A stretch of 64,000 nt of DNA from contig CAZGGU010000003.1 in the NCBI GenBank assembly GCA_964525395.1, positions 2,883 to 66,882 on the forward strand, written 5' to 3'. Made by a program: the position numbers and the translations under genes. This DNA comes from an uncultured Gammaproteobacteria bacterium. GTDB lineage: Bacteria; Patescibacteriota; Microgenomatia; Levybacterales; UBA12049. Positions within the stretch are counted from its first letter, which is position 1; each line of letters starts with the position of its first letter. Below, in pieces: positions 1,359 through 34,262 of this stretch. Below the pieces are notes generated by a model that was given only the letters and a program-made list of their open reading frames with translations, did no database searches and had not been told where the DNA came from.

Positions 1359-1367
1359 TGCTATAAT
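1359..1367 (+). promoter_or_regulatory. extended -10 element TGcTATAAT, 8 nt upstream of ATG 1376 (leaderless-type promoter)
   Basis: Perfect TATAAT preceded by TGn. No SD between it and the start codon. Confidence 0.5.
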
Positions 1368-1375
1368 CTAGTCTC

Positions 1376-2032
1376 ATGAGAATATTAATCGTCGAAGACG
1401 AACATAAAATCGCTAATTCCCTTAAGCAGGGTCTCACTCAGGAAGGATTCGTGGTGGATGTTTGTTTCGATGGTGAGTCAGGCTTGGATCTAGCAACTGA
1501 AGAAGAATTTGATTTGATTATTCTTGATCGTATGCTTCCTGGAATGGATGGAGTCGAGATTATAAAAAAGATGCGTGAGAAAAAAGTTCATACACCAGTT
1601 CTTTTTCTGACAGCCAAAGGACAAGTCACTGATAAAGTGGAGGGATTGAATGCTGGAGCTGATGATTATTTAGTTAAACCTTTTGCATTTACGGAGCTCC
1701 TTGCTAGAGTACGAGCGCTCATTAGAAGACCGAATAAATCTTTAGGAGATAAATTGATAATTGATAGTCTAACGCTTTCTCCAGATATTTTTGAAGTAAA
1801 GAGAGAAGGAAAGAAAATTGAATTATCTAATAAAGAATTTTCTCTTCTTGAGTATTTAATGCGACATCCAAATCAAATAATTAAAAAAGAACAAATAATT
1901 AATCATGTATGGAGCTATGAATCTGATGTCTTGCCAAATTCTGTGGAAGTTTATGTAAAACATCTTCGAGATAAATTAGGAAAACCGAATGTAATAACTA
2001 CTGTTAGAGGGTTCGGGTATAAAATAGGTTAA
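1376..2032 (+). CDS. OmpR/PhoB-family response regulator (receiver + winged-helix DNA-binding domain)
   Basis: MRILIVEDE...DLIILDRMLPGMDG...LTAKG...GADDYLVKPF receiver signature. C-terminal ...VRGFGYKI winged helix. Confidence 0.9.
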   Translation: MRILIVEDEHKIANSLKQGLTQEGFVVDVCFDGESGLDLATEEEFDLIILDRMLPGMDGVEIIKKMREKKVHTPVLFLTAKGQVTDKVEGLNAGADDYLVKPFAFTELLARVRALIRRPNKSLGDKLIIDSLTLSPDIFEVKREGKKIELSNKEFSLLEYLMRHPNQIIKKEQIINHVWSYESDVLPNSVEVYVKHLRDKLGKPNVITTVRGFGYKIG

Positions 2033-2033
2033 T

Positions 2034-3032
2034 ATGTTTTCTCGTGCAAGAATCAAATTAACTGCTTATTATCTTCTTATACTAATGTCGATTAGTATTT
2101 CATTTAGTGTAATTATTTTTCAATTAGTCAACGCAGATTTTAAAAGGTTAGAAAAAGTTCAAAACAGAATTCAGCGAGAATATAATCCAGAATTTATTGG
2201 TCCTCGACCGCCACATTTAACACCTCAAGAGTTAGAGCTAGTGGGAGAAGCGAGAAATAGATTTATACTTAATTTAATTTTTATTAATTTAGTGGTATTA
2301 ATGGGCGCTGGAACTGCTGCATATTTTCTTGCAGGAATGACATTAAAACCAATTAAAGAAATGATGGATGAGCAAAATAGATTTATTTCAGATTCTTCAC
2401 ATGAACTACGAACTCCACTAACCAATCTCCGTTCAGAAATAGAAGTGACGCTTAGAAATAAAAAATTAACTAAAGATGAAGCGGTAAAAATAATAGAGAG
2501 TAATTTGGAAGAAGTAATTGTTCTTCAGAAATTGTCAGATGAATTATTAGAATTGGTTCAAGGGAAAAATAAAATCGACAAAATAAATCTTGAGAAAATT
2601 TTAATTGGTAAAGTTATTGATCAGGCGTTAGATAAAACTAAAAGTATGGCGAAAATTAAAAATATAAAAATTGAAAATAAAGTAAAAAAAGGTTATACCT
2701 TGGCTGACGAATCAAGATTGACTCAGTTATTTACTATTCTTTTTGATAATGCCATTAAGTACTCGGATAGAAACGGTAAGATTCAAATTTCTTCAGTCAC
2801 TAATAAATCTAAAATTAAAATTAATCTAGAAAATGGTGGTACAGGAATAGACAAAGAAGACTTACCTTTTATTTTCGACAGATTTTATCGGGGAAGTAAG
2901 TCAAGAAGCGAAGACGGTCATGGTTTGGGTTTGTCAATTGCTAAGAAAATCACTGAAGAATTTCAAGGATCTATCTCAGCAAAGAGTGAAAATAATAAAA
3001 CCACTTTCATTTTAATCTTCCCTGCTGCTTAA
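2034..3032 (+). CDS. sensor histidine kinase (two TM segments, HisKA + HATPase_c)
   Basis: H-box SHELRTPLTNL. N/G boxes FDNAIKYSD and GGTGIDKEDLPFIFDRFYRG...GHGLGLSIAK. Starts 2 nt after the RR stop, so likely an operon. Confidence 0.85.
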   Translation: MFSRARIKLTAYYLLILMSISISFSVIIFQLVNADFKRLEKVQNRIQREYNPEFIGPRPPHLTPQELELVGEARNRFILNLIFINLVVLMGAGTAAYFLAGMTLKPIKEMMDEQNRFISDSSHELRTPLTNLRSEIEVTLRNKKLTKDEAVKIIESNLEEVIVLQKLSDELLELVQGKNKIDKINLEKILIGKVIDQALDKTKSMAKIKNIKIENKVKKGYTLADESRLTQLFTILFDNAIKYSDRNGKIQISSVTNKSKIKINLENGGTGIDKEDLPFIFDRFYRGSKSRSEDGHGLGLSIAKKITEEFQGSISAKSENNKTTFILIFPAA

Positions 3033-3084
3033 GCTTCATTTCAGTTTGCACTGCTAAATTATTCATATGAAAGGAGGTGAGAGA

Positions 3085-3561
3085 ATGAATAAAAAACTAT
3101 TACTACCAGCAGTAACTTTACTCGTAGTTGGAGCAAGTATTTTCGGTGTACATGGCGTTTTGGCGGCTGACACTGATAATCCAGAATCTACTCTTGTTCA
3201 AAAAATTGCAACAAAGTTTAATTTAAATCAAGACGAAGTTCAAAAAGTTTTTGATGAAGAACACGCTGTAAGAGAAGCAGAGATGCAAACTAAGAATGAA
3301 GATAGACTTTCTCAGCTGGTTACTGATGGAAAAATCACTGAAGCTCAAAAAACATTGATTTTAAATAAGCAGAAAGAGCTTAAAGCGAATAGGCCAGACA
3401 AAGACAGTTTTAAGAATTTGACGCCTGAAGAGAGAAAATCTCAGATGGAAGCGAAAAAGACTGAGTTAGAAAATTGGGCCAAGGAAAACGGAATAGATAT
3501 AAAGTATCTTTTCGGTTTCGGAGGTCATGGTTTTCGAGGCGGACCAGGAGTCAATAAATAA
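3085..3561 (+). CDS. secreted hypothetical protein (signal peptide, Gly-rich C-terminus)
   Basis: Strong SD AAGGAGGTGA at 3071-3080, 7 nt before ATG 3085. The track ORF starts at 3067, but the SD sits inside its first codons. N-terminus MNKKLLLPAVTLLVVGASIFGVHGVLA is signal-peptide-like. Confidence 0.6.
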   Translation: MNKKLLLPAVTLLVVGASIFGVHGVLAADTDNPESTLVQKIATKFNLNQDEVQKVFDEEHAVREAEMQTKNEDRLSQLVTDGKITEAQKTLILNKQKELKANRPDKDSFKNLTPEERKSQMEAKKTELENWAKENGIDIKYLFGFGGHGFRGGPGVNK

Positions 3562-3575
3562 TCATATATCGGATT

Positions 3576-3620
3576 CCCAAAAATCTCTTCTTTAACGGGA
3601 GATTTTTGGGTTTTTATTTT
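3576..3620. terminator. rho-independent terminator: 12-bp perfect stem CCCAAAAATCTC/GAGATTTTTGGG followed by TTTTTATTTT
   Basis: Inverted repeat read directly. The T-tract follows on the + strand. The hairpin overlaps the stop of the convergent minus-strand gene ending at 3592. Confidence 0.75.
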
Positions 3621-4620
3621 GAATAGACAAGCATCCAAAAATAAACAGACCGATGGATAGTAAAAGTTCACATGGTTCTTGCCACTGCCAATGTTTGCCA
3701 GAGAGGAAATTAATATGGATATAAAAAAAGAAAATTGGCAAAAAGTAAAAAATTAAATATTTAGAGGGAACAAAAGATTCATATTTTGTTCTTAACTTAT
3801 TAGGAAGAGCTGAAACAAGTAACCAAGCAAAAGAAAGAAAACCTGAGAAGACTAAATAAATATATGGTTGAAGTTCTTGAAGTCCATTTATGTTATGAAT
3901 GGTAGTCTCACCTTGAGCATTATTTACCTGAACTACTTCAGGAGAACTAATTCCAAAAATTCTTTGTCCCCATGAAATTTCTTCTCCTGTGATAAATAAT
4001 AATCCTAACCCAAAAATTAGAAAATAGATAAAAAATAATTTATTTGATTTGAAATATTTAAAAGAAATAGTAAAAAATAAAATTGATGAAAAGCCATAAA
4101 AAACTACTTGCAAATTTTCTAGTAAATTATCTTCTCGAATAATATCGTTAAAAACACCACCCGGCCAAGTTTTAATTAGAGCCATTATTCCTAAAAGTAG
4201 AAGAGAAATTAGAAAAATAAAGTTATTTTTGTTTTTGGTAATTTTAGATTTATCAAAAGTGAATATTCTTACGGAAAGGCTTATTAAAAATAGGAAAAAG
4301 ATTATTTCATAATGAATATGGAAATTTTGAAAAACAAAATTGGGATATGTAAATATTTCTAACAAAGTAAAAAGAATTGTGACACTAAAAGTTAAAGGTA
4401 GAATAATGAAAGAATTTATTTGATCAATTAATCTTGGGAGTTTGGTGGGTTTGTTTCTTAGTAAATTAAGTATAGAAAACAAGAATGTCATTAAGACCAA
4501 AAGTTGGATATTGAAGGGTAAATATTTTTCAATATATCCTTGATAAGAAAAAGATTCAACACCTACGAGAACAGTAGAAAGTGACGCAAGTACTAAAAAT
4601 AATAGGGCAGAGTAAGACAT
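3592..4620 (-). CDS. polytopic integral membrane protein, function unknown
   Basis: 342 aa with about 9-10 hydrophobic segments. No catalytic motif recognised. Confidence 0.55.
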   Translation of the reverse strand: MSYSALLFLVLASLSTVLVGVESFSYQGYIEKYLPFNIQLLVLMTFLFSILNLLRNKPTKLPRLIDQINSFIILPLTFSVTILFTLLEIFTYPNFVFQNFHIHYEIIFFLFLISLSVRIFTFDKSKITKNKNNFIFLISLLLLGIMALIKTWPGGVFNDIIREDNLLENLQVVFYGFSSILFFTISFKYFKSNKLFFIYFLIFGLGLLFITGEEISWGQRIFGISSPEVVQVNNAQGETTIHNINGLQELQPYIYLVFSGFLSFAWLLVSALPNKLRTKYESFVPSKYLIFYFLPIFFFYIHINFLSGKHWQWQEPCELLLSIGLFIFGCLSIQNKNPKISR

Positions 4621-5268
4621 TTATTTATCTTCGCTGATTAGTTTTTTAATTTCCTGAAGAGGATTGGGTGCCTCAGGTATGGTTGGGAGACTTATTTTTT
4701 TAAGTGGAAGAATAGGGGCTCCACTTTCCATCTGACGTTCAAGAGCTTTCTCAATTCCTTCAGTATTGGTTGGTTGAAGCATTTCAGCCAAAATTTCATC
4801 TTTGGAAATATCGATTTTATTTTTTTCAGCGATCTGGGTAACTAGCATAAGAATTTTAGTTATTTCTTTTTCTGAAATAAGCCCTATTTGATAATTAACT
4901 TCTTCTCGTAATTCATCTACTTTTGATTGTCTGTTTTGAGAGATTAGTACGAAAATAGCTAAAATAATTGCTTCAAGTGATACCGCGGTGGTTAATAGAT
5001 TAAAAGGATAAGGATCAAAAATTGGAAAGAATGGAATATAACCTTTATTTATTAATAACCAAAATACAAATACAATAAGATTAAATACAAGAAAGAGAAT
5101 TGTTCCAAAAGTTAAAGTCATCCAGTCAGCTAATTTTTCACTCGGTGTTCTATTCCTATTAGCTTTCGCTTTAAAACTTTTGATTACTCTTCGGCTTTTA
5201 CGAATTTCTTCCTGAAAAGGAGTATATGCTGACTGTTCTTTTGATATATCTTTTTCTTTGTTGCTCAT
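4621..5268 (-). CDS. DUF1003-family membrane protein with C-terminal coiled-coil region
   Basis: Motif FFPIFDPYPFNLLTTAVSLEAIILAIFVLISQNRQ matches the DUF1003 signature DPYPF...SLEA...SQNRQ. Paralogue of the 7020-7520 gene. Confidence 0.65.
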   Translation of the reverse strand: MSNKEKDISKEQSAYTPFQEEIRKSRRVIKSFKAKANRNRTPSEKLADWMTLTFGTILFLVFNLIVFVFWLLINKGYIPFFPIFDPYPFNLLTTAVSLEAIILAIFVLISQNRQSKVDELREEVNYQIGLISEKEITKILMLVTQIAEKNKIDISKDEILAEMLQPTNTEGIEKALERQMESGAPILPLKKISLPTIPEAPNPLQEIKKLISEDK

Positions 5269-5348
5269 AGTAAAAGCATCTCACTTTTCAATTTCTCTTG
5301 TCAAGCTCAAAAGTTGTAATTTATTGCAAATTATTTTATGTTTATAGG

Positions 5349-5978
5349 ATGCTTAAAAAGAAGCAAATAAATTTGATAATTGGAGTAATCGTTATAGTTT
5401 TTTCACTGCTGGCTGTCTTTTTTAGTAATCAGAATTCAAGCTTAATTGGAGTTGACTCCAGGGGCTCACTCAGTCCTACAGTAGAGGTTAAAGGAGAATC
5501 GGTAGTCCTCGAAATCACACCCTCAATTACTCCCGGGGAATCATTGCCTAATAAAACGCTTTATAGAGTCTTAAAGGTAATTGATGGAGATACTATCGAT
5601 GTAGCACTGGACGGTAAAAGTGAACGTCTTCGTTTGATCGGCATAAATACTCCTGAGACAGTAGATCCTAGAAAAGAAGTAGAGTGCTTCGGTCATGAAG
5701 CAAGTGATAAAGCTAAGGAGATTCTCAAAGATCAATTCGTAGTTCTAGAAAATGATCCTTCTCAGTCAGAGCGAGATAAGTATGGAAGACTCCTCCGATA
5801 TGTTTTTCTTCCAGACGGCACAAATTATAATTTGTTTATGATCGAAGAAGGGTTTGCATATGAATATACATATAATAGTGCTTATAAGTATCAAAAAGAA
5901 TTTAAAGCTGCTCAGGAGTATGCGCAAAATAATGGAAAAGGACTTTGGAGCTCCACTACTTGTTCTGGGGAAAAATAA
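5349..5978 (+). CDS. membrane-anchored/secreted thermonuclease (staphylococcal nuclease SNase-like)
   Basis: YRVLKVIDGDTIDV...ERLRLIGINTPET...ECFGHEASD...YGRLLRYVF resembles the SNase catalytic core. The track ORF begins with TTG at 5298. First ATG at 5349 gives MLKKKQINLIIGVIVIVFSLLAVFF, a signal-anchor. Confidence 0.8.
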   Translation: MLKKKQINLIIGVIVIVFSLLAVFFSNQNSSLIGVDSRGSLSPTVEVKGESVVLEITPSITPGESLPNKTLYRVLKVIDGDTIDVALDGKSERLRLIGINTPETVDPRKEVECFGHEASDKAKEILKDQFVVLENDPSQSERDKYGRLLRYVFLPDGTNYNLFMIEEGFAYEYTYNSAYKYQKEFKAAQEYAQNNGKGLWSSTTCSGEK

Positions 5979-6088
5979 ATTTTATAATAGATTCATGTTA
6001 ATCCGAGAAATTGTAAAGACCACCACCAACACCTTCCAGCTTAGCTGGGAGATGTGTTAGTGGAATAACTCCTAATTCCTCCAAGACA

Positions 6089-6113
6089 CCTCCCAACTAG
6101 CGGGAGGTTTTTT
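6089..6113 (+). terminator. rho-independent terminator CCTCCC-aactagc-GGGAGG + TTTTTT
   Basis: 6-bp GC stem, 7-nt loop, 6 T's. Lies downstream of the nuclease gene. Confidence 0.65.
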
Positions 6114-6124
6114 ATCATTAAAAA

Positions 6125-6153
6125 TTAACTGGTTAATAAATTAATGCGTTAAT
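6125..6153 (+). promoter_or_regulatory. two near-palindromes TTAACTGGTTAA and TTAATGCGTTAAT just upstream of the small acidic protein gene
   Basis: Same TTAAC-N2-3-GTTAA(C/T) motif family as the repeats around the four-helix-bundle gene at 58282-58310 and 58724-58736. Confidence 0.35.
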
Positions 6154-6175
6154 GAAATGAAGGGGGGTGAGTATT

Positions 6176-6373
6176 ATGGCAGAATTTGAAGGAAGAATTG
6201 ACGACGGTCATGAAGGTGAGGGAGTTTTATATTTCTCCTCAAGCTTGGATGAATTGCCAATGAACGTAGCTTTAGCTAAAAGATTGGATTCAATGAGCGA
6301 TGATGAATGGGAAGAAGTTCTGAAAAAGCATCTAGAGCTTGCTGAAAGATACGACGGACCAGGAGGCCCGTAA
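6176..6373 (+). CDS. small acidic hypothetical protein (65 aa)
   Basis: Strong SD GGGGGGTGA at 6162-6170, 5 nt before ATG 6176. Protein MAEFEGRIDDGHEGEG...DDEWEEVLKKHLELAERYDGPGGP. Terminator hairpins lie on both sides. Confidence 0.5.
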   Translation: MAEFEGRIDDGHEGEGVLYFSSSLDELPMNVALAKRLDSMSDDEWEEVLKKHLELAERYDGPGGP

Positions 6374-6381
6374 CATATTTG

Positions 6382-6408
6382 GCCGGGGCTAGTTCCCGGC
6401 TATCTTTT
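6382..6408. terminator. hairpin GCCGGG-gctagtt-CCCGGC followed by TATCTTTT; shared terminator for the convergent genes
   Basis: Inverted repeat read directly. Overlaps the stop codon of nth on the minus strand. Confidence 0.55.
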
Positions 6409-7023: not shown

Positions 7024-7520
7024 TTAATTTTCTTTTCTGGTGCAGGTGGAAGTTTTTCCATGGCGGCAATTTTTTGAGAGATAAATGTCATGGCATTTTT
7101 TATGTCATCAAGGTCTTTTTGGATATCTTCGACGTCTTCTTCAAGTTCTTCCTGCTCTTTATCTTCTTCTGCCTGCTCCTGATCTTCTTCCAAATCTCTA
7201 GCAGTTTCAATTAAGGCTTGTCGATTTTGACTAACCATAATAAAAGTAGCTAGAAATATGGCTTCGAGCGAAACAATCATGGTTAATAGTCCGAATGGGT
7301 ATGGGTCAAAAGGTGGGAACCAGCGGTTAATTCTAGGATCATTTAGGGCAAACCAGGCAATAAACCATATAGCATTAAGATAAACAAACCACATGCTACC
7401 CGCAAAACCGGTTATAAAGTCAGCTAGTCTACCTTCAAATGAGTGAAGTTTTTTAGCGATTTGTTCTGGAGTTGTGCTTTCCATCGGTAAGACTTGTGTT
7501 TCTTTTAGCTTTTTTTGCAT
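7020..7520 (-). CDS. DUF1003-family membrane protein with acidic coiled-coil tail
   Basis: WFPPFDPYPFGLLTMIVSLEAIFLATFIMVSQNRQ signature. Overlaps the nth start by 4 nt, so a likely operon. Paralogue of 4621-5268. Confidence 0.65.
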   Translation of the reverse strand: MQKKLKETQVLPMESTTPEQIAKKLHSFEGRLADFITGFAGSMWFVYLNAIWFIAWFALNDPRINRWFPPFDPYPFGLLTMIVSLEAIFLATFIMVSQNRQALIETARDLEEDQEQAEEDKEQEELEEDVEDIQKDLDDIKNAMTFISQKIAAMEKLPPAPEKKIK

Positions 7521-7661
7521 AATTTAATATTACCTTGCCTTGATTTGGTCAGTCAACCCAGGAGAATAAAGGAGCTTGTTTCTCTTGACCCCACCAATTT
7601 TAGCATTCAGCTTACCTACTATTCGTAGCGCGCTTCATGCTGCAATTTTGGAGGGGTCTTC

Positions 7662-7680
7662 GCTCCGATTAAATCGGAGC
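7662..7680 (+). other. 8-bp hairpin GCTCCGAT-taa-ATCGGAGC immediately upstream of the lon -35 box
   Basis: Perfect inverted repeat in the divergent promoter region. Confidence 0.3.
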
Positions 7681-7709
7681 TTGACACCTAGCAGGTCTTG
7701 TGATAGAGT
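7681..7709 (+). promoter_or_regulatory. sigma70-like promoter of lon: TTGACA-N17-TGaTAGAGT, ending 9 nt before ATG 7719
   Basis: Consensus -35, 17-nt spacer, extended -10. GAGTGCTAA at 7706-7714 equals the right half of a CIRCE element. Confidence 0.55.
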
Positions 7710-7718
7710 GCTAATACG

Positions 7719-10091: not shown

Positions 10092-10101
10092 TTTCTTCCT
10101 T

Positions 10102-10128
10102 GTGTTACTTTTTCCGGAAAAGTAACAC
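10102..10128 (+). terminator. perfect palindromic hairpin GTGTTACTTTT-tccgg-AAAAGTAACAC, 10 nt after the lon stop
   Basis: 11-bp stem. AT-rich, with no clean downstream T-tract, so terminator function is uncertain. Confidence 0.35.
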
Positions 10129-10369
10129 AAAAACTCTTGCGATGAAGTCGAACTTGTTTCTATTCACTTGTTCGTCGGGTAATTTCACCCCTTCCTCGTC
10201 AAGTTTGCGAGGAATTCCCCTGATGTCACAAGTTCATAAAAACTTAACGTTCTATGTTCAATCGCAAAGGGGACGAAAATAGAAGAAAAACGTCTTTTGT
10301 TCTAGGATGTAAAGGGGAACTTTGGATACTGTATTGACAAAGGAGGGGAATTGTGGGAAAAATTAGTTA

Positions 10370-10516
10370 ATGCCTAAAAAGAAATCCAGATCCACAAGAA
10401 AAAGTAACGGCCTTCACAATGTAAAAAAGGGTTATGCGGGCTTCACTCCATTTCAACTCATTGTCGTCTTCTCAGTTTTTATAGTCTTCGCCGTCTTCGT
10501 AATGATGTATTACTAA
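10370..10516 (+). CDS. possible small tail-anchored membrane protein (48 aa), not in the ORF track
   Basis: MPKKKSRSTRKSNGLHNVKKGYAGFTPFQLIVVFSVFIVFAVFVMMYY: basic N-terminus plus a single C-terminal TM. AAGGAGG lies 22 nt upstream, which is too far. Confidence 0.3.
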   Translation: MPKKKSRSTRKSNGLHNVKKGYAGFTPFQLIVVFSVFIVFAVFVMMYY

Positions 10517-10573
10517 TTTGTACGCTGCAAATTATTTGTTTTGGTTTCAATTTTAAGGTAAAATAGAGGCTAA

Positions 10574-10647
10574 GCCCCGTTCGTCTAGTGGCCTAGGACG
10601 TCGGATTCTCATTCCGAAAATCACCGGTTCAACTCCGGTACGGGGTA
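10574..10647 (+). tRNA. tRNA-Glu (anticodon CUC)
   Basis: Cloverleaf read by eye. Acceptor GCCCCGT/ACGGGGT (G1-U72). D-arm TCGTCTAGTGGCCTAGGACG. Anticodon stem TCGGA/TCCGA with loop TTCTCAT. T-arm CCGG-TTCAACT-CCGG. Discriminator A; CCA not encoded. Resembles bacterial tRNA-Glu. Confidence 0.8.
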
Positions 10648-10678: not shown

Positions 10679-10686
10679 TGTATAAT
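10679..10686 (+). promoter_or_regulatory. extended -10 TGTATAAT, 6 nt upstream of GTG 10693
   Basis: Perfect TATAAT right after the tRNA. Supports GTG 10693 rather than TTG 10678 as the start. Confidence 0.45.
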
Positions 10687-19739: not shown

Positions 19740-19747
19740 TGTAAAAT
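19740..19747 (+). promoter_or_regulatory. extended -10 TGTAAAAT, 6 nt upstream of ATG 19754
   Basis: Same TGTAnAAT-N6-start geometry as at 10679 and 34255. Confidence 0.45.
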
Positions 19748-19753: not shown

Positions 19754-20668
19754 ATGAAAAAAATCTATATAATTCTTATAAATTATAATAGTCAAAAAAA
19801 TACTATTGAGTGTCTAGACTCATTATCAAAAATCAAAACTTCTGGATTTGAAATTTCTACAATAGTGGTTAATAATTCACCGGAAAATATAATTGTGGTA
19901 AATGAAGAAAGATACAAGAGTATTGGATTGAAATTAATTTTTAGTGCAGAAAATGTTGGTTTTTCAGGTGGCATGAATTTAGGTATTTCTGAAGCAATTA
20001 AAAATAATACAGACTATATTTTAATTCATAATAATGACACCCTTGTAAAACAAGATTTTCTTCAGAAGCTCTTTGATTTTGCTGAGAAAAATGAAAATGT
20101 TGGCATAATGTCTCCTAAAATATATTTTGCAAAAGGTTTCGAATTTCATAAAGACAGATATAGAAACGATGAATTAGGGAGAGTGGTTTGGTACGCCGGA
20201 GGAGAAATTGATTGGAAAAATGTAATAGGGCAAAATATGAATGTAGATGAAGTAGACAATGGGCAATTTGATAAAAATATTGAAGTAGATTTTGCCACAG
20301 GCTGTTCAATGCTGATCAGATCTGATTTAATAAGAAAGATTGGTTCGTTCAATGAAAAATATTTCCTATATTATGAGGATGCTGATTTATCAGTCCGTGC
20401 TAAAAAGAATGGGGATAAAGTTTATTTAGTAGCAGATTCTATAGTCTGGCATAAGAACGCAGGCTCAGCTGGAGGATCAGGGTCAAAATTACAAGATTAT
20501 TACATTACTCGAAATAGACTTTATTTTGGAAATAAATATGCTCCAGTTAGAGCCAAGATTGCATTAACAAGAGAGGGTTTATCCTTGATAAAAAAGGGCA
20601 GAGAGGGTCAGAAATGGGGAGCTGCTGATTATTTCAGGGGTAAAATGGGAAGAAGTAATCACTTTTAA
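19754..20668 (+). CDS. GT2 glycosyltransferase
   Basis: IYIILINYNSQKNT...VVNNSPEN...GFSGGMNLGI...DYILIHNNDTLV DXD-type GT-A motifs. Confidence 0.8.
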   Translation: MKKIYIILINYNSQKNTIECLDSLSKIKTSGFEISTIVVNNSPENIIVVNEERYKSIGLKLIFSAENVGFSGGMNLGISEAIKNNTDYILIHNNDTLVKQDFLQKLFDFAEKNENVGIMSPKIYFAKGFEFHKDRYRNDELGRVVWYAGGEIDWKNVIGQNMNVDEVDNGQFDKNIEVDFATGCSMLIRSDLIRKIGSFNEKYFLYYEDADLSVRAKKNGDKVYLVADSIVWHKNAGSAGGSGSKLQDYYITRNRLYFGNKYAPVRAKIALTREGLSLIKKGREGQKWGAADYFRGKMGRSNHF

Positions 20669-20672: not shown

Positions 20673-21416
20673 ATGAAATTAACAACGATAATTATTACAA
20701 AGAATGAAGAAAAAAATATCGCAGATTGTTTGGACTCAGTTAAATTTTCCGACGAAATAATCGTAGTTGATAATAATTCAACTGACTTAACACCCGAGAT
20801 TGCTAAAAAATTTGGTGCAAAAGTCATAAGGGAAAAATTTGAAAGTTTTTCTGCTCAGCGTGAAGCAGGACTTAAAGCTGCTAAATCTGACTGGGTTTTA
20901 TATTTGGATGCTGATGAAAGAATCAGTGAGAAGTTAAAAGAAAATATATTAGAGACAATTAAAGACAATAATACGAAAGAGGTTTATAAAATAAAGAGAA
21001 AAAACTTCTATTTTTATAAATATGAATGGAAATTTTATGATGATTTGGAAAGGTTGTTCAAAAAAGATGCGCTTAAGAGTTGGTATGGGGAAATTCATGA
21101 AAGTCCTAATTTTATCGGTGAAGTTGGTAGTTTAAATGGATTTATAATTCACTATACTCATAATGATTTAACCTCAATGCTTAATAAAACTATAAAGTGG
21201 TCTGATACTGAAGCAAAACTTAGAATTGAAGCAAATCATCCAAATATGGGTTGGTGGAGATTTCCACGGGTCATGGTGCCCACATTTTTTAACTATTATG
21301 TTCGTCAGAAAGGATACAAGCTTGGGACAGCAGGGTTAATTGAATCAATTTTTCAGTCTTATAGCATGTTTATTACTTATGCGAAGTTATGGGAAATGCA
21401 GCAAAAGAAGTCTTAA
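20673..21416 (+). CDS. GT2 glycosyltransferase
   Basis: LTTIIITKNEEKNI...EIIVVDNNSTD...LDADERI. Paralogous in style to 33386-34240. Confidence 0.75.
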   Translation: MKLTTIIITKNEEKNIADCLDSVKFSDEIIVVDNNSTDLTPEIAKKFGAKVIREKFESFSAQREAGLKAAKSDWVLYLDADERISEKLKENILETIKDNNTKEVYKIKRKNFYFYKYEWKFYDDLERLFKKDALKSWYGEIHESPNFIGEVGSLNGFIIHYTHNDLTSMLNKTIKWSDTEAKLRIEANHPNMGWWRFPRVMVPTFFNYYVRQKGYKLGTAGLIESIFQSYSMFITYAKLWEMQQKKS

Positions 21417-21643
21417 GGTAGAAAATTAGTCTTTTTAAAATCTTCAATTTTAATTCTGGTTTTAGCAAATCTAAATAAATAAATAATCTCGAGTATTCCA
21501 AGAGTAATGGTATTTAAAATTAGCATAGCTACGAACCAATTTTTCTGATCATATTTTGCCGCGCGCCAAAGTGCTAGCGCTTTCCAGAAAAGGGTCCATG
21601 CGAGTATTACTATTCCAATTAAGGGGTTAAAGCCAGAATCCAT
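21413..21643 (-). CDS. small two-TM membrane protein (76 aa); the only minus-strand gene inside the glycosylation array
   Basis: PLIGIVILAWTLFWKALALW and WFVAMLILNTITLGILEIIYLF hydrophobic segments. Positive-inside loop. Fills an otherwise empty 280-bp gap. Confidence 0.4.
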   Translation of the reverse strand: MDSGFNPLIGIVILAWTLFWKALALWRAAKYDQKNWFVAMLILNTITLGILEIIYLFRFAKTRIKIEDFKKTNFLP

Positions 21644-21682
21644 ACCTGAATATTATCATTTCTTTCACAAAAGAGCAAAAAT

Positions 21683-21691
21683 TGTTAGAAT
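21683..21691 (+). promoter_or_regulatory. extended -10 TGtTAGAAT, 6 nt upstream of GTG 21698
   Basis: Same geometry as the other leaderless-type promoters. The transcript would begin at GUGAGUCCCGUU. Confidence 0.4.
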
Positions 21692-21697: not shown

Positions 21698-22822
21698 GTG
21701 AGTCCCGTTGAGAATTGCGGTGATTTGAGTATGATTGATAATAAAAAAATATCTAACGGGTTAAAAATAGGAATTTATGATCCATATCTAGATGACATTG
21801 GAGGTGGCGAGAAATACATGATGACTATCGCCGAATTTTTATCAAAATCTCACGATGTTGATGTTTTTTGGGATGAAATATCTGTTATCGATAAAATATC
21901 CGAGAGATTTGGATTAAACCTGACTAATGTAAATATTGCTAATAACATTTTTAAGTACCCATTTGTTAAAAGACAGAAAGCTTCTAAAAAATACGATATT
22001 ATTATTTTTCTTTCAGATGGCAGTATCCCGATTTTGTCTTCAAAAAAAATCTTTATTCATATTCAGCAGCCAATTCTTAATAAAAAATTAACGATTAAGG
22101 ATAAATTAAAGCTCAAAAGGATAAGTGGTATTTTCGTTAATTCAGAATTTACAAAAAAATTCGTGGATCGGGTATTTGGGGTAAAAAGTAAAATTTTATT
22201 TCCACCAGTAAATATTTACGGAATGCATAACGAAAAGCAGAATATTATTTTACATGTTGGGCGTTTTAGGGTCATTCAGGTAAGTTCAGATGACTATAAA
22301 AAACAGTCAGTGATGATTAACGTTTTTAAGAAAATGGTTGATTCAGGCCTGAAAGACTGGAAGTTTGTAATTGCAGTAAGCCTCCCTGATGAGTTTGATC
22401 CAAAATTTGTGGCGATGAAAAATAGCGCTAAGGGATATCCAATTGAATTCCTTATTAATTCTTCAAATGAGTCACTTTGGAAAAAAGGAGCAAAGGCAAA
22501 AATTTATTGGCATGCAAGTGGATTTGGTGAGGATCTAGAAAAGCATCCTGAGCTTGCCGAGCATTTTGGTATCTCAACAGTAGAAGCAATGGGTGTAGGA
22601 GCAGTGCCAGTGGTAATTAATGCTGGAGGACAAGCTGAGATAGTTCAAGATGATAAAAATGGACTTCTATGGGAGAGTTTGGATGAATTTGAAAAAGATA
22701 CTTTTAAGTTAATTAATGATCCAAAGCTACTTAAAGAAATGTCAGTGAATGCTTACAAAAGATCACTCGATTTTGATAAAGAAAATTTTTATAAAACAAT
22801 TAAGCAAATATTAAATGTTTAA
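21698..22822 (+). CDS. GT4 (GT-B fold) glycosyltransferase
   Basis: N-terminal LKIGIYDPYLDDIGGGEKY. C-terminal FGISTVEAMGVGAVPVV EX7E-type motif. The start may be GTG 21698 or ATG 21731 (MIDNKK). Confidence 0.8.
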   Translation: MSPVENCGDLSMIDNKKISNGLKIGIYDPYLDDIGGGEKYMMTIAEFLSKSHDVDVFWDEISVIDKISERFGLNLTNVNIANNIFKYPFVKRQKASKKYDIIIFLSDGSIPILSSKKIFIHIQQPILNKKLTIKDKLKLKRISGIFVNSEFTKKFVDRVFGVKSKILFPPVNIYGMHNEKQNIILHVGRFRVIQVSSDDYKKQSVMINVFKKMVDSGLKDWKFVIAVSLPDEFDPKFVAMKNSAKGYPIEFLINSSNESLWKKGAKAKIYWHASGFGEDLEKHPELAEHFGISTVEAMGVGAVPVVINAGGQAEIVQDDKNGLLWESLDEFEKDTFKLINDPKLLKEMSVNAYKRSLDFDKENFYKTIKQILNV

Positions 22823-28360: not shown

Positions 28361-29988
28361 AAAAATTCTTAAAACCTAAATATATCCTATTTGTCATTGT
28401 TTTACTCGCAGCATTTCTGCGATTTTATAATCTGTCGATAAATCCTCCAGCATTAAATTGGGATGAAGCAGCGCTTGGATATAATGCTTATTTGCTTGGA
28501 ATAGATGGTAAAGATGAATTCGGTAAGACTTTACCACTAGCCTTTATCGAGTCTTACGGAGATTATAAGCCTGTTGTTTATTCATACCTCTCGATCGTTC
28601 CGGTAAGAATATTTGGTTTGAATGAATTAGGTGTGAGATTTTTGAGTGCATTTTTAGGAACATTTACTGTTCTTTTAACATATTTTTTAGTTAAGCAAAT
28701 TTTTTATAAGAAAGAAAATGAAAATATTGAATCGATCGCTTTATTTTCTTCCTTTATAATTGCAATTTCTCCTTGGACGATAATGCTTTCTCGAGGCGCT
28801 TATGAAGCAAATGTCTCAACTTTTTTTATTGTTCTTGGAATTTTATTTTTTCTTTATGCAGTTAATAAAAAGATTTGGTTTTTAGTTCCTTCTGCTATTT
28901 CTCTGGCGATCACTTTTTACACATTTAACACTGCGAGAATATTCATACCTTTAGTCATAGTCGTTATGGCAATTGTTTTTAGAAAAGTTCTAATTAAAAA
29001 TTATAAACAGGTACTAATCTCAGGAATTGTAGGATTAATTATTCTTCTTCCTACGCTCCCTTTTTTATTTTCTCCTCAGGCTAAAATTAGATTTCAGGAA
29101 GTAAATATCTTTAGTAATCCGAAAATTGTTGAAGATTCTAATCAATACATTGTTAATGACAATGGTGCAATTTGGTCCAAGATTATTCACAACAGGAGAG
29201 TTTTGTATGGAATTGAATTTTCGAAACATTATTTTGATAATTTAAATCCTGATTTCTTATTTATAAAAGGAGATGGGAATCCGAGATTTTCAACTCAGGA
29301 CGTAGGTCAGTTATATTTAATTGAACTGCCATTTTTGATTTCGGGAATATTTTTACTTTTCAGAAAAAGAGAAGGGCATTATTGGCTCATACCTGTCTGG
29401 TTTCTTTTAGGAATTATTCCAGCTGCTACAGCACGAGAGACGCCTCATGCTTTAAGAATTGAAACTGTAATTCCGATGCTACAAATCTTGGTGGCTTATG
29501 GAGCAGTAAATCTAATCATCATGATGAAGAAATATAGAGGTGTAGCATATAGTTTGATTATACTTTTTATGTTAGGAAGTTTGATCTATTTTTATCATGG
29601 TTTGATTTTTCACTATCCAAGAGAGTATTCATCTGAATGGCAGTATCCGTATAAGGAGGCTGTTGCATTCGCAAATAAGAATAAAGATAAATATTCATCA
29701 GTTTTGGTCACAGAAAAACTTGGCAGACCTTATATCTACTTTTTACTTTATGGAAAAGTAAGTCCAGTAGAATTCAGACAGAGTTCTAAGATTGACAGGG
29801 AGGCGCTGGGATTTGTACATGTGAGAAGTTTTGATAAATATAAATTCGTAAATGAAATAGAGAAGGAGCAAGAAAGTGGCGTTTTATATATCGATGTTCC
29901 AAATAACTTGCCAAAAGACGTGAAAGTTTTGAAGGAATTCAGATTGTTAAATGGAGACCAGGGCTTAGTGGCATATGAAAAAAATTGA
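28357..29988 (+). CDS. GT-C membrane glycosyltransferase (ArnT/PMT-like), paralogue 2 of 3
   Basis: LNWDEAALGYNAYLLGIDGKDEFGKTLPLAF. Collinear with neighbours, including HNRR..Y, FIKGDGNPRFS and PHALR motifs. Confidence 0.75.
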   Translation: MKKFLKPKYILFVIVLLAAFLRFYNLSINPPALNWDEAALGYNAYLLGIDGKDEFGKTLPLAFIESYGDYKPVVYSYLSIVPVRIFGLNELGVRFLSAFLGTFTVLLTYFLVKQIFYKKENENIESIALFSSFIIAISPWTIMLSRGAYEANVSTFFIVLGILFFLYAVNKKIWFLVPSAISLAITFYTFNTARIFIPLVIVVMAIVFRKVLIKNYKQVLISGIVGLIILLPTLPFLFSPQAKIRFQEVNIFSNPKIVEDSNQYIVNDNGAIWSKIIHNRRVLYGIEFSKHYFDNLNPDFLFIKGDGNPRFSTQDVGQLYLIELPFLISGIFLLFRKREGHYWLIPVWFLLGIIPAATARETPHALRIETVIPMLQILVAYGAVNLIIMMKKYRGVAYSLIILFMLGSLIYFYHGLIFHYPREYSSEWQYPYKEAVAFANKNKDKYSSVLVTEKLGRPYIYFLLYGKVSPVEFRQSSKIDREALGFVHVRSFDKYKFVNEIEKEQESGVLYIDVPNNLPKDVKVLKEFRLLNGDQGLVAYEKN

Positions 29989-31624
29989 TTTTAAAATTAT
30001 CATATTGTTCTTAGGAATTGTTTTACTAGCAATTTTTTTAAGATTTTCGCATCTCGATCAAACTCCACCCTCACTAAATTGGGATGAAACATCATGGGGT
30101 TACAATGCATATTCAATTTTAATGACAGGAAAAGACGAGTATGGATCAAAGCTCCCATTGATAATTAGATCGTTTAATGATTACAAGCCTGGGCTTTATG
30201 CCTATTTACTAATTCCATTCATCTCTGTATTTGGGCTCTCAGATTTTATTGTTCGTTTTCCAAATGCATTATTTGGGGTTTTGACTGTAATTACTACTTA
30301 TTTCCTTGCAAAGGAATTGTTTAAAAATAGAGCTATAGCATTTATTAGTATGTTTCTCATGGCAATTTCTCCGTGGAGTATTCAGTTTTCTAGATTTGCT
30401 CATGAAGGTATCGTGGGACTTGAGTTCAACTTACTTATGGCGTTTTTCTTTATTAAGGGAATGAAGAATCCTAAATTGTTATGTTTATCAGCACTTTTTG
30501 CAGGATTGTCTCTGTATAGTTATCAAAATGAAAAAGTTTTTGTTCCTCTGTTTGGCTTAATACTTTTAGTTGCTTACATTAAAGATTTTATAATAGTCCC
30601 AAAGAAATATATAAGTGCAGCTTTTATGGTGGGTTTAGTCGTAGCTTTGCCTATTATTTATATAACTTTGACTAATCCTGCATCTTTAACTCGTGCCAAA
30701 GGAGCAAGTTTTCTAAATAATCCAATTGGAGTGCTTAGACAAGACCAGCCGGAAAGAATTTTAAAGGATAAGAATAATGGTGATGTCATAGGATTGGCAA
30801 TTGATAACAGGAGGATTTCATATGTCAAAGAAATTGTAGGGAATTATTTAGTTCATTACGATCCTAACTTTTTGTTTATAAATGGCGATGTTATTCCAAG
30901 ACATCAAGCATCAGGAATGGGCCACTTATATCTAATCGAACTGCCTTTCCTATTGTTGGGTTTGTATTTTTTTGTTTTCGGTAAATTTGACCGAAAAAGT
31001 AAGATTTTTGTAATTCTTTGGATACTCATTGTGCCAATTGCTGCGTCGATTACATGGGATGTTCCTAATTCAGGGAGGACATTAAATTTCTTGCCCACCT
31101 TCCAAATGATAATTGCGATAGGGATAGTTAGCTTCTATTTCATAATAAAAAATGCTAAATTCCACAGATATATTAAATATGGAATTTTTGGAGTGATAAT
31201 CTTACTTGCTACTTTTAATTTTATTTACTATCTAAATCAATACTTTGTTCAATATAGATACTTTAATTCTCAAGCTTGGCAATATGGCTATAATCAGATC
31301 ATTCCAGTAATAGAAAAAGAATATCCGAATTATAAAAAAATTCATGTAGGCACTATGGTTCCTCTTGATCAGTCATATATTTTCTTTTTATATGGTTTGA
31401 GATTTGATCCAGCTACTTATCAAAAAACATCATCTTCAGGTGAGTATCAGGCAAATCATAATTTCGATAAGTTTGAATTTTCAAATTTTGATTGGAAAGA
31501 CAGAAAATCTGGAGAACTTTATATAGGAAAAGCTAATCAATTTTCTGGAGTTGAGGAATCAAATATTATAAAAAGGATTAAATTCCTTGATGGGTCATCA
31601 GATATTTTAATAGTAAAAAATTAA
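29975..31624 (+). CDS. GT-C membrane glycosyltransferase (ArnT/PMT-like), paralogue 3 of 3
   Basis: LNWDETSWGYNAYSILMTGKDEYGSKLPLII. Same collinear motifs. Confidence 0.75.
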   Translation: MKKIDFKIIILFLGIVLLAIFLRFSHLDQTPPSLNWDETSWGYNAYSILMTGKDEYGSKLPLIIRSFNDYKPGLYAYLLIPFISVFGLSDFIVRFPNALFGVLTVITTYFLAKELFKNRAIAFISMFLMAISPWSIQFSRFAHEGIVGLEFNLLMAFFFIKGMKNPKLLCLSALFAGLSLYSYQNEKVFVPLFGLILLVAYIKDFIIVPKKYISAAFMVGLVVALPIIYITLTNPASLTRAKGASFLNNPIGVLRQDQPERILKDKNNGDVIGLAIDNRRISYVKEIVGNYLVHYDPNFLFINGDVIPRHQASGMGHLYLIELPFLLLGLYFFVFGKFDRKSKIFVILWILIVPIAASITWDVPNSGRTLNFLPTFQMIIAIGIVSFYFIIKNAKFHRYIKYGIFGVIILLATFNFIYYLNQYFVQYRYFNSQAWQYGYNQIIPVIEKEYPNYKKIHVGTMVPLDQSYIFFLYGLRFDPATYQKTSSSGEYQANHNFDKFEFSNFDWKDRKSGELYIGKANQFSGVEESNIIKRIKFLDGSSDILIVKN

Positions 31625-31634
31625 ATTAATAAAG

Positions 31635-31665
31635 TTGACAGAAATTATCTGTATCGTGCTAAAAT
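31635..31665 (+). promoter_or_regulatory. promoter TTGACA-N16-TGcTAAAAT, ending 5 nt before ATG 31671
   Basis: Consensus -35 at 31635-31640. Extended -10 at 31657-31665. Confidence 0.45.
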
Positions 31666-31670
31666 AAATT

Positions 31671-33386
31671 ATGAAGCTAAATAGAATTAAATTAAAAGTA
31701 AAGGAGTTAATAAAAAATCAGAATTTTTGGATATTTTTAGCCTTTTTTATCTTCGTAGCAGCGATATTTATAATTGATAGTAAGCATGAGAGATATCCTG
31801 ACGAATTTGACAATATTTTAGGTGGAAAGTACTTATTACAAGGTAAATTAATCTATAAAGATTGGTTTACTCATCATGGACCTTTTTCATATGTGGTTGC
31901 AGCTGTAGTAAATTTATTTAGCTTTAATTCCTTTGTTCTTTTTAGATTCTTCTATGCAATATTTTTACTTTTGCTAACATTTGGTTCATATTTTTATATC
32001 AAGTCTAGCCTTAAAACAGTTGAAACTAAATTTTATTTATTTTTTATATTCTTTTTGGGATTAGCATCAACATATTTCTGGGGACAAATGCTTCTCGCTG
32101 ATAATCTGGCAGCTTTTCTTCTAACTCCAGTTTTTGCATTGGTCTTTTTGAAATCAATCAATAATTTGAAGTTTAGTACAAAAGATTTTATTTTTATTTC
32201 AGTATTTTCATTCCTCGCGTTGATGAGCGCACTAACATATTCGTATTTAGTGGCGGGTGTTTATGGTTTTGTATTTATTTATTACTTATACCAAGAAAGA
32301 AGGAAGTCTGACCCAATATATTTATTGAAAATGATTGGTGTAATTCTATTGCCATTTGTTTTATTCCTACTTTATTTAATTGTCACGGGATCTTTAGGAA
32401 GCTATTTTTATGATGCAGTGAAATTTAATCGAGATTTTTATATCTACTATCCAGGATTTGAAGGAAAACCTCCCTCAAATCCAATTAGATACGGAATTAT
32501 CATGCTTCAAGGTTTTCATAATAATTTTTCTTCGATGATGCTAGGCGTTAGAGATTTCAATTTCACTTATCCATTTAACATTTCTCTAGGTGTCGCCAAT
32601 ACAGCTCTCGCAATTTATTTAATTCTTAAAAAGAAATATTTACCAGTTTTACTTCTCGTAGGTGTTTTAGTGTATGCAAATGCAAGAACTAATCCTTTTA
32701 GTTCTGCTGAAACTGACTATCAGTCAGCAGTTTACATAATGATCTCTCTTTTTAATCTTTGTTTCGTAATCCCTGCGCTTTATAGAGAAATAAACATTTC
32801 ATCAGATTCAGCTAAAAAAATTATTTGTGGAGTACTTTTTATACTGGTATTAGTTTATAGCTTTTTCTGTTTCACATTTATATTAAGAAAGTTTTCTTAT
32901 AAAGCTTATGATAAATATATGGGATTGGCTTCCTCTATCTATGACGGTCCTAGAATCGCACCTGTGATGAATAGAATTGTTCCTAGTGATCATTATTCCT
33001 GGATTGGTCCTTTTGCATTTGAAGATTTGTATTACTTAGATTCCAAAATCCCTTCTAGATATCAGGTTTTACTTCCAGGAATGGGTAAATCTGAGAAAAT
33101 TCCCGCTGAAATAATTTCAGATTTTGAAAAAAATAAACCTGACGTAATTTATTTTGATAAAGATTTCTTTATTTTAGGGGGTAATCCCGCAGTTTACGGA
33201 AAATTCTTTATGGACTTCTTAGGAGAGAATTATTACAAGCTTGATGAGATCGATAACGGAGCATATCAGTATTCCGATGGCGTTGATAGATCATTTTTAT
33301 TTGAACAAAAGCTTTATATAAGCAAAGATAAAGCGCCTGAGGTAGTTAAGCGACTTAAATCAGAAGGATTAATAATAAATAACTAA
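31671..33386 (+). CDS. GT-C-like polytopic membrane protein (ArnT-like N-terminal loop)
   Basis: DEFDNILGGKYLLQGKLIYKDWFTHHGPFSY fits the DE...Y...G...Y..(K/H)PP ArnT-type motif. About 12 TM plus a C-terminal soluble region. Confidence 0.55.
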   Translation: MKLNRIKLKVKELIKNQNFWIFLAFFIFVAAIFIIDSKHERYPDEFDNILGGKYLLQGKLIYKDWFTHHGPFSYVVAAVVNLFSFNSFVLFRFFYAIFLLLLTFGSYFYIKSSLKTVETKFYLFFIFFLGLASTYFWGQMLLADNLAAFLLTPVFALVFLKSINNLKFSTKDFIFISVFSFLALMSALTYSYLVAGVYGFVFIYYLYQERRKSDPIYLLKMIGVILLPFVLFLLYLIVTGSLGSYFYDAVKFNRDFYIYYPGFEGKPPSNPIRYGIIMLQGFHNNFSSMMLGVRDFNFTYPFNISLGVANTALAIYLILKKKYLPVLLLVGVLVYANARTNPFSSAETDYQSAVYIMISLFNLCFVIPALYREINISSDSAKKIICGVLFILVLVYSFFCFTFILRKFSYKAYDKYMGLASSIYDGPRIAPVMNRIVPSDHYSWIGPFAFEDLYYLDSKIPSRYQVLLPGMGKSEKIPAEIISDFEKNKPDVIYFDKDFFILGGNPAVYGKFFMDFLGENYYKLDEIDNGAYQYSDGVDRSFLFEQKLYISKDKAPEVVKRLKSEGLIINN

Positions 33387-34240
33387 TGAAAATCTCCGTA
33401 GCGCTAGCTGTATTTAATGAAGAAAAAAATTTAGAGAGGTGTCTTAAATCTGTCGAAGAGTTAGCTGATGAAATAGTTATAGTAGATGGGTCTTCTAATG
33501 ATAAAACAGTGGAGATTGCTAAGAAATTTAAAGCTAAAATTCTCATAAAGGATAATCCTCCCATGTTTCATATCAATAAACAAAAAGCGATTGATATGTG
33601 CTTGGGATCGTGGATCTTGCAGCTTGATGCGGACGAAGTGGTAAGTCACGAGTTGGCTGAAGAAATAAAGTTAATCAGCAGTTTAAGCGACAAGGAGATT
33701 GAAGAATATCAGGAAAGTGTTAAAAATATTGAAATGCTAAGGCGTCACCAGTCTCTAATTGATAAGCGAGATGGAAAAATTGGGGATGATAAAAAAGAGT
33801 ATGCAGCATTTTTCATTCCAAGAGCGAATTTTTTTCTGGGTCGATACTTAAAATATGGGGGAGTTTACCCAGATGGTGTAATCAGGTTATTTAAAAAAGG
33901 AAAAGCTTATTTACCTTGTAAAGATGTGCATGAACAGTTCGAAGTTTCAGGGCGTGTAGGGTGGCTACAAAATGATTTACTGCACTACGATTCTCCGACA
34001 TTCGAAAAGTATATTAAAAGAAATAATAGATATACGACCTTTATTGCATCGCAGTATAAGGATGAAAATCTTCCAAAGAATCCAATCTATTTTATTAAGT
34101 ATGTTTTTGTTTTGCCGATTAAATGGTTTTTCTTAACATTTTTTAGACATAAAGGTTTTCTTGATTCATGGCAAGGATTTGTATTTTCATTTTTTTCTTC
34201 ATTAAGATTTGCAATATCCTACATTAAATACATTAGCTAA
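33386..34240 (+). CDS. GT2 glycosyltransferase
   Basis: ISVALAVFNEEKNL...EIVIVDGSSNDKT...LQLDADEVV. Confidence 0.75.
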   Translation: MKISVALAVFNEEKNLERCLKSVEELADEIVIVDGSSNDKTVEIAKKFKAKILIKDNPPMFHINKQKAIDMCLGSWILQLDADEVVSHELAEEIKLISSLSDKEIEEYQESVKNIEMLRRHQSLIDKRDGKIGDDKKEYAAFFIPRANFFLGRYLKYGGVYPDGVIRLFKKGKAYLPCKDVHEQFEVSGRVGWLQNDLLHYDSPTFEKYIKRNNRYTTFIASQYKDENLPKNPIYFIKYVFVLPIKWFFLTFFRHKGFLDSWQGFVFSFFSSLRFAISYIKYIS

Positions 34241-34254
34241 TCTTCTTAACATTT

Positions 34255-34262
34255 TGTAGAAT
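34255..34262 (+). promoter_or_regulatory. extended -10 TGTAGAAT, 6 nt upstream of ATG 34269
   Basis: Lies in the 28-bp gap after the preceding stop. Confidence 0.45.

Follow-up and report, generated by a model that had tools for sequence, protein, structure and literature searches.

The closest described counterparts of the gene starts reported here are found in group C of the GeneMarkS-2 classification, in which a Pribnow box lies 6-8 nt before the starts of first genes in operons; among 4769 bacteria surveyed, 1028 fell into this group, most of them Actinobacteria and Deinococcus-Thermus (PMC6028130). Group C genomes using genetic code 11 are reportedly almost all of high GC content (preprint 10.1101/2022.07.25.500264). 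In Deinococcus radiodurans, the -10 motif has been shown experimentally to be the promoter -10 for leaderless messenger RNAs (mRNAs), and an added -35 element at 17 bp raises expression; the paper ranks Deinococcus-Thermus highest among the surveyed phyla, and its text does not mention the candidate phyla radiation (CPR) (PMC12340547). Herein, we analysed a 64,000-nt stretch of contig CAZGGU010000003.1 (32% GC), referred to as the window. In this DNA, sigma-70-type, mostly extended -10 promoters probably butt against operon-first genes and give leaderless messages. The leaderless architecture itself is known; what appears to be new is the low-GC, code-11 CPR lineage.

The closest Lon match of the window came from a Candidatus Levyibacteriota metagenome-assembled genome (MAG), with 76% identity, and the next ones from other Microgenomates and Patescibacteria, which places the window within the Microgenomates group of the CPR (Levyibacteria-like). 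The source is a bacterium of the small-genome, groundwater type. Its genes, including a two-component system, Lon and a very large glycosyltransferase array, are bacterial. An archaeal-type leaderless organisation, with a TATA box at -26, was ruled out, the genes, the tRNA and the relatives all being bacterial.

With group C organisms such as Mycobacterium tuberculosis, the window shares the TANNNT box 6-8 nt from the operon-first start, the lack of a Shine-Dalgarno (SD) sequence there, a leaderless share of about 25-50% of operons and the coexistence of leaderless and other initiation modes. It differs in being a 32% GC, code-11 CPR sequence, in its markedly extended -10 (TGn) promoters and in its remaining genes, which are SD-led in group C, whereas 42 of the 56 window genes have no SD match of at least 4 nt. 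Compared with the -10 motif of Deinococcus and Thermus, the TANNNT element and its strict spacing to the open reading frame (ORF) are the same; the phylum and base composition are different, and the case made here is sequence-based. Mycoplasma (genetic code 4) is also low in GC; it has a reduced genome, and 30-60% of its transcripts are predicted to be leaderless (preprint 10.1101/2022.07.25.500264). The window, in contrast, uses TGA as a stop (the code 11 ORFs are intact) and belongs to an unrelated lineage, the Patescibacteria.

Start-abutting promoters in the window

An earlier note on this stretch had described seven gene starts preceded by a TG-proximal -10 hexamer from which the transcript would begin at or within 3 nt of the start codon. 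By direct sequence check, all seven motif-to-start strings were located at the coordinates it gave, as follows.

1359-1367 (+): TGCTATAAT (TGcTATAAT), hexamer 1362-1367, N8, ATG 1376; OmpR-type response regulator heading a two-component operon; Response_reg from residue 3, in-frame stop 4 codons upstream, next start 25 codons downstream
7701-7709 (+): TGATAGAGT (TGaTAGAGT), hexamer 7704-7709, N9, ATG 7719; lon; -35 TTGACA 7681-7686, 17-nt spacer; LON substrate-binding domain from residue 4, in-frame GTG 3 codons downstream
10679-10686 (+): TGTATAAT, TATAAT 10681-10686, N6, GTG 10693; glycosyltransferase of family GT2 heading an 8-gene overlapping operon, 30 nt past tRNA-Glu; GT2 domain from residue 8
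19740-19747 (+): TGTAAAAT, TAAAAT 19742-19747, N6, ATG 19754; GT2 glycosyltransferase; domain from residue 4, in-frame stop 4 codons upstream
21683-21691 (+): TGTTAGAAT (TGtTAGAAT), N6, GTG 21698; glycosyltransferase of family GT4
31657-31665 (+): TGCTAAAAT (TGcTAAAAT), hexamer 31660-31665, N5, ATG 31671; 571-aa membrane protein with no Pfam match; -35 TTGACA 31635-31640, long 19-nt spacer; in-frame stop 2 codons upstream, next start 74 codons downstream
34255-34262 (+): TGTAGAAT, TAGAAT 34257-34262, N6, ATG 34269; NAD-dependent sugar epimerase; Rossmann motif VTGGAGYIG at residues 5-13, in-frame stop 4 codons upstream

The two TTGACA -35 elements that had been claimed, at lon and at 31671, are present with the spacers listed, and the 5-9-nt discriminators contain no SD sequence, as had been stated for the seven sites. 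The TG-proximal description needs a qualification: four sites (1359, 7701, 21683 and 31657) carry the canonical TGnTAnnnT, whereas at the other three the TG abuts the hexamer (TGTAnAAT).

At least five further such starts were found, so that 12 promoter-abutting starts are tabulated for the window, of roughly 20 operon-first starts.

762-799 (+): TTGATT 762-767, N17, TACTAT 785-790, N6, ATG 797; dTDP-4-dehydrorhamnose 3,5-epimerase homologue; Pfam PF00908 from residue 13, in-frame stop 2 codons upstream, no next start codon for 41 codons
3052-3087 (+): TGcTAAATT 3052-3060, N6, ATG 3067; AAGGAGGTGA 3071-3080, N4, ATG 3085 in the same frame
5314-5351 (+): TTGTAA 5314-5319, N17, TATGTT 5337-5342, N6, ATG 5349; SNase-family nuclease
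7518-7556 (-): TTGACT 7556-7551, N18, TAATAT 7532-7527, N6, ATG 7520; DUF1003 protein, divergent from lon; in-frame stop 2 codons upstream, site also matched by the promoter scan
21641-21658 (-): TGaTAATAT 21658-21650, N6, ATG 21643; 76-aa DUF5652 gene, 21413-21643

Canonical TGn is also present at 3052 and 21658 (-). About half of the operons appear to begin transcription right at the start codon, with neither a leader nor a ribosome-binding site.

The starts at 797, 1376, 7719, 19754, 31671 and 34269 are secure from domain boundaries and from in-frame stops 2-5 codons upstream. The next in-frame starts of five of these genes (797, 1376, 19754, 31671 and 34269) lie 15-74 codons downstream, within conserved domains. 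For the SNase-family nuclease, ATG 5349 is the probable true start: its product begins with an N-terminal membrane anchor, MLKKKQINLIIGVIVIV, and the longest-ORF start, TTG 5298, falls within the divergent promoter region. The DUF5652 gene (PF18893, E = 2.4e-20) lies in an apparent 281-nt gap, is absent from the list of ORFs of at least 80 aa and is retained in both L081 and L082, which are syntenic contigs. Its promoter and that at 21683 stand back to back in a 54-nt divergent spacer, an arrangement also found in L081.

Two observations concern neighbouring sequences. A second strong extended -10 box, TGCTAAAAT at 7597-7605 (-), lies in the lon-divergent spacer 76 nt upstream of the DUF1003 start 7520; it might act as a second promoter, one giving a leader, or mark where a small RNA begins. 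Between lon and tRNA-Glu, a possible 56-aa small membrane protein with one hydrophobic helix (MPKKKSRSTRKSNG...) is encoded at 10334-10540 (+); ahead of its ATG 10370 stand TTGACA, N18, AAAAAT and N6, i.e. a consensus -35 with a weak -10, which would make another leaderless-type start.

Motif position against chance expectation

A 32% GC genome is full of TATAAT-like strings, and those near starts could have been picked out by chance. TANAAT occurs in 389 copies in the window, the background of TANNNT is about 3.6% per position in upstream regions, and a generic -35/-10 promoter scan of the window gave 79 matches against 70.2 expected from shuffles, with no excess. Such a scan is uninformative because the DNA is AT-rich, and it is therefore the fixed distance that carries the signal. 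With window starts chosen motif-blind by a longest-ORF rule, TANNNT was found at 5-9 nt before 9 of the 18 first genes (those with their own intergenic space) versus 3.5 in dinucleotide shuffles (P about 0.003), and before 5 of 38 operon-internal genes. The stricter TG[N]TANAAT has only 23 copies in the 64 kb (both strands). Seven of them are intergenic, all promoter-oriented to a gene, and six lie 5-8 nt before starts, the seventh at 76 nt. These counts speak against chance, as do the relatives.

Positional peak in relatives

The same motif-blind rule was applied to 37 CPR loci, yielding 301 first genes preceded by 30 nt or more of free sequence. At a distance of 6 nt from the start, TANNNT was present 47 times against 11.0 per background position, and TGnTAnnnT (TGNTANNNT) 18 times against 1.03 (P about 1e-16). 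Restricting the count to the 14 loci whose names place them in Microgenomates lineages left a peak of 21 versus 4.8. Operon-internal genes of the CPR loci showed no peak, with TGNTANNNT at 6 nt in 1 of 171. The motif therefore stands at a fixed distance, is restricted to operon-first genes, as in group C, and occurs across CPR of the Microgenomates type. Base composition does not account for it: CPR loci with a GC content of at least 44% keep the 6-nt peak, whereas it is missing from 94 first genes of low-GC non-CPR loci. Non-CPR loci have a normal SD peak at 5-9 nt instead.

When the sites of the relatives were aligned by their hexamers, the canonical TGn was evident (T, 54% versus a background of 32%; G, 42% versus 17%), the TG position adjoining the hexamer was at background level, and the -35 element was weak on average. 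The start codons following the motif were ATG (24), GTG (5) and TTG (0), compared with 215, 24 and 62, respectively, among all first genes; the occurrence of ATG and GTG but never TTG fits initiation at a purine. The preference expressed in the earlier note for GTG 10693 over TTG 10678, which overlaps the -10 box, agrees with this absence of TTG and with the frequent use of GTG after the motif.

An AT-rich box before genes might instead be a non-SD ribosome-binding or translation-enhancer element on leadered mRNAs, as in the Bacteroidetes-type group B of GeneMarkS-2. Most window genes have no SD, the 20 nt before their start codons are A-rich, and the genomes of group B are likewise AT-rich (preprint 10.1101/2022.07.25.500264), all of which would suit such an element. 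In group B, however, the motif precedes all genes, operon-internal ones included (PMC6028130), and a Bacteroidetes-type ribosome-binding motif was excluded because the internal genes here have no peak. The TG at the exact extended -10 position, the -35 elements (TTGACA or TTGCAA) at 17 nt at some sites, the avoidance of TTG after the motif, and the framing of the lon box by a -35 and a repressor operator, as in a regulated promoter, also argue for a promoter. We consider a translational element highly improbable.

One relative illustrates how such starts may be misread. At 3154-3168 of L081, the called ATG directly abuts TATAAT, and a second ATG 6 nt later fits both the leaderless spacing and the N-terminus of the orthologues; the start of the gene at 3160 was likely miscalled for lack of a leaderless model.

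Conservation at orthologous GT4 promoters

Because the N-terminus of the GT4 family to which the 21698 gene belongs is invariant ([MV][KR]IGI[FY]DPY), its start codon is pinned. Metagenome contigs supplied 53 distinct sequences upstream of this codon, and in 43 of them TGnTAnAAT stands before it, at 6 nt (32) or 7 nt (11). The pinned codon is ATG in 24 and GTG in 19, and the T and G of TGn are invariant in all 43. The conserved promoter reads TTGCAA, N8, AAAA, n, TTGnTAGAAT (TTGCAA...AAAAnTTGnTAGAAT), and close orthologues read TGTTAGAAT-aaatat-(A/G)TG-AAA-ATA-GG. Distant operon-internal paralogues do not have the motif. In the flanks of the GT4 loci, with the query gene excluded, the extended box was found at 6-7 nt before 6 of 32 first genes, versus 0.07 per background position, and before none of 168 internal genes. 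The geometry is therefore conserved at orthologous promoters. Taken together, the positional and orthologue statistics refute the chance reading, to which we assign next to no probability.

The orthologues also bear on the possibility that the boxes are real promoters whose true starts lie further downstream, behind ordinary short leaders. This probably holds for 3085, where an SD and a signal peptide follow 18 nt after the predicted transcription start, and possibly for 21731 (see below), and the variable distances from the -10 to the ATG among lon relatives are in its favour. As a general account it is unlikely: at 797, 1376, 19754, 31671 and 34269, use of the next start would delete receiver-domain or GxGxxG residues, and the invariant GT4 sequence, MKIGIFDPY, begins at the codon 6-7 nt past the box in the 43 orthologues.

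In the window itself, a 63-nt in-frame insertion (21701-21763) containing ATG 21731 follows directly after GTG 21698, and L082 carries the insertion likewise after its GTG (1171-1233). Since the window insertion is in frame, GTG 21698 stays usable. In L082 the frame hits a stop, so that an ATG within the insertion, equal to window ATG 21731, is needed. The window ATG is preceded by a weaker SD-like match, GGTGA-N7-ATG. By comparison with the orthologues, the 21683 promoter is ancestral.

The insertion ends in an inverted repeat, CCCGTT...AACGGG, which forms a 15-bp stem in L082 (z = -4.9). A leader riboswitch or attenuator at 21698 was considered and rejected, as the window fold was no better than shuffles (z = -0.9); the element was taken as an inverted-repeat insertion. 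In addition, TCTAACGGG immediately precedes the ATG in the paralogue at 57748 and in the L093 orthologue; in L093 it follows a strong SD. Possibly, the insertion represents a short 5' module that is mobile or has been recombined.

Proposed initiation mechanism

A sigma-70-type holoenzyme would bind the extended -10 promoter (TGnTAnnnT), with a weak or absent -35, and RNA polymerase would initiate about 7 nt past the -10 hexamer, so that with a 6-nt gap the +1 would be the A or G of the ATG or GTG. A -10 element usually lies about 7 bp upstream of the transcription start site (TSS) (PMC12641261); the 6-nt gap equals this distance, which supports +1 at the start codon. The mRNA would thus begin with the start codon itself or, at the N8 and N9 sites, with 1-3 extra nucleotides. 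Because the promoter abuts the start codon, no room is left for an SD, and the 5'-terminal AUG or GUG would be recognised directly by ribosomes with initiator tRNA. Downstream genes that lack an SD and overlap or abut one another are presumably translated by coupling or reinitiation. The prediction in the earlier note of transcripts starting at or within 3 nt of the start codon accords with the position peak, the TGn signature, the codon usage and the orthologues.

Several points weigh against this account. The 5' ends in this organism and its close relatives are predictions, and the gene calls of the relatives are crude, which dilutes the signal and could in principle also bias it. The sites at 10679, 19740 and 34255 lack the canonical TGn. 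In the syntenic relative L081, the promoter at 19754 has no conserved counterpart: the gene is operon-internal there and the box degenerate. At lon, the gap is 9 nt in the window and ranges from 7 to more than 30 nt in relatives, corresponding to leaders of about 0 to more than 20 nt. The working start of the GT4 gene may be either GTG 21698 or ATG 21731. Finally, several of the promoters lie in 28-53-nt gaps of long same-strand arrays lacking a terminator, so that these starts must also occur internally on read-through transcripts.

The lon promoter and its CIRCE-type operator

The -10 of lon lies within an inverted repeat, CTAGCAGGT-N9-GAGTGCTAA (7688-7714), directly after the -35. The consensus of CIRCE (controlling inverted repeat of chaperone expression), the HrcA heat-shock operator, is TTAGCACTC-N9-GAGTGCTAA. 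The window copy deviates from it at 4 of 18 positions, all in the left arm (CTAGCAGGT, 5 of 9 matching), and the right arm GAGTGCTAA is perfect. It shares with CIRCE the 9-nt inverted repeat, the 9-nt spacer and the location upstream of heat-shock genes. Unlike CIRCE copies in 5' untranslated regions, the window operator overlaps the promoter spacer and the -10, so that almost none of it would be transcribed; given the N9 gap, the predicted lon leader is about 3 nt (start about 3 nt before the ATG). This layout points to a heat-shock-regulated lon promoter whose -10 would be occluded by the operator.

More than 30 CPR loci retain the arrangement TTGACA-n-TTAGCA...TGCTAA ahead of lon, and the CIRCE copies upstream of lon in relatives (L001-L064) have 0-5 mismatches. 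Second copies stand ahead of clpB in two CPR loci (L025:5272 and L046:167), which suggests an HrcA-type regulon spanning lon and clpB in the CPR. Mycoplasma genitalium likewise has CIRCE elements upstream of lon and clpB. No hrcA was noticed among the scanned window genes, although no search was aimed at it.

Directly upstream of the lon -35 lies a perfect 19-nt palindrome, GCTCCGATTAAATCGGAGC (7662-7680), which might bind a regulator or terminate the divergent transcript. Motifs resembling it, CCGATTAAATCGG, are located just upstream of promoters in the relatives L006, L010 and L007.

SD use and operon structure

Strong SDs were found at about 3 of the window genes. The SD-led genes that the earlier note had set against the seven sites, 3085 and 6176, do carry them: AAGGAGGTGA, listed above, precedes ATG 3085, and the second is as follows.

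6162-6178 (+): GGGGGGTGA 6162-6170, N5, ATG 6176; SD-led 65-aa ORF

The contrast is incomplete, since 3085 shares the promoter geometry, with an 18-nt leader. The transcript predicted for 3067 would have an in-frame AUG at its 5' end, followed by a perfect 10-nt SD ahead of ATG 3085, at which the signal peptide (MNKKLLLPAV...) starts. Because these SDs are strong, the anti-SD is probably intact, in agreement with a survey in which anti-SD loss was found only in one Parcubacteria subgroup (PMC9297842).

Both leaderless and SD-led initiation are thus represented, as had been proposed, but the description as a mixture of the two understated the situation: the 42 genes without an SD are mostly overlapping and operon-internal. 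Same-strand junctions are at most 4 nt apart or overlapping in 36 of 48 cases, 14 of them of the 4-nt ATGA type. The SD-type sites that characterise the remaining genes in group C are scarce in the window, and the SD peak is weak in the CPR loci. Three classes are present: leaderless first genes; coupled internal genes without an SD, which are the majority; and a few genes with a strong SD. Nor is such a mixture new in kind, as it defines group C (PMC6028130).

One array, 34269-57461, holds 22 same-strand genes (glycosyltransferases, sugar epimerases and membrane proteins) in about 23 kb, almost gapless and with mostly overlapping starts. No start-abutting promoter was found within it past 34269. 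TGnTAnAAT boxes inside coding sequence may act as internal promoters that give leaders; one example, at 40689, lies 82 nt ahead of the gene at 40780.

Significance for CPR genomes

In our judgement, it is slightly more likely than not that operon-first genes throughout Microgenomates, and perhaps in much of the CPR, rely by default on leaderless initiation from extended -10 promoters. A full-text search, with incomplete coverage of the literature, found no paper linking leaderless mRNAs to CPR, Patescibacteria, Saccharibacteria, Microgenomates or TM7x, only incidental co-mentions. The only CPR TSS set found is that of Nanosynbacter lyticus, which is listed in PMC12641261.

CPR ribosomes are unusual and reduced, and we know of no experimental test of promoter or translation-initiation models for most of the CPR. 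If leaderless initiation is indeed the default, then, together with the near absence of SDs at internal genes, initiation in these reduced-ribosome bacteria would be largely SD-independent. A low-GC, code-11 lineage would stand outside the high-GC pattern of leaderless-rich bacteria, and the addition of a deep-branching low-GC lineage to these would bear on whether leaderless initiation is ancestral.

Start codons in CPR MAGs are called by SD-tuned tools, and the NCBI annotation pipeline already models a leaderless signal. Leaderless first genes would lead to systematic start-codon errors in CPR annotations. As a start marker, a TGnTAnnnT box 6 nt upstream (with GTG common and TTG absent) would correct calls such as GTG 10693, ATG 5349 and the second ATG at L081 3160, and would reveal small genes such as the DUF5652 gene. 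A compact conserved promoter with a predictable +1 would also be a handle for metatranscriptome analysis and could aid expression tools for the few cultivable Patescibacteria.

Other features of the window

An Rfam scan of the window returned tRNA only. Phased 12-nt palindromes, TTAAYNNRTTAA, overlapping at an 8-nt period, occur in 9 copies versus 2.6 expected (6125-6152, 58282-58317 and 58724-58735). Their clusters stand before the SD-led ORF 6176 and on both sides of a gene annotated as '23S rRNA intervening sequence protein' (PF05635, 58325-58714), which is itself flanked by an N-terminal GT4 fragment (57748-58293) and a GT4 gene of full length (58752-59882). The layout is suggestive of a cassette insertion or of an array of operators.

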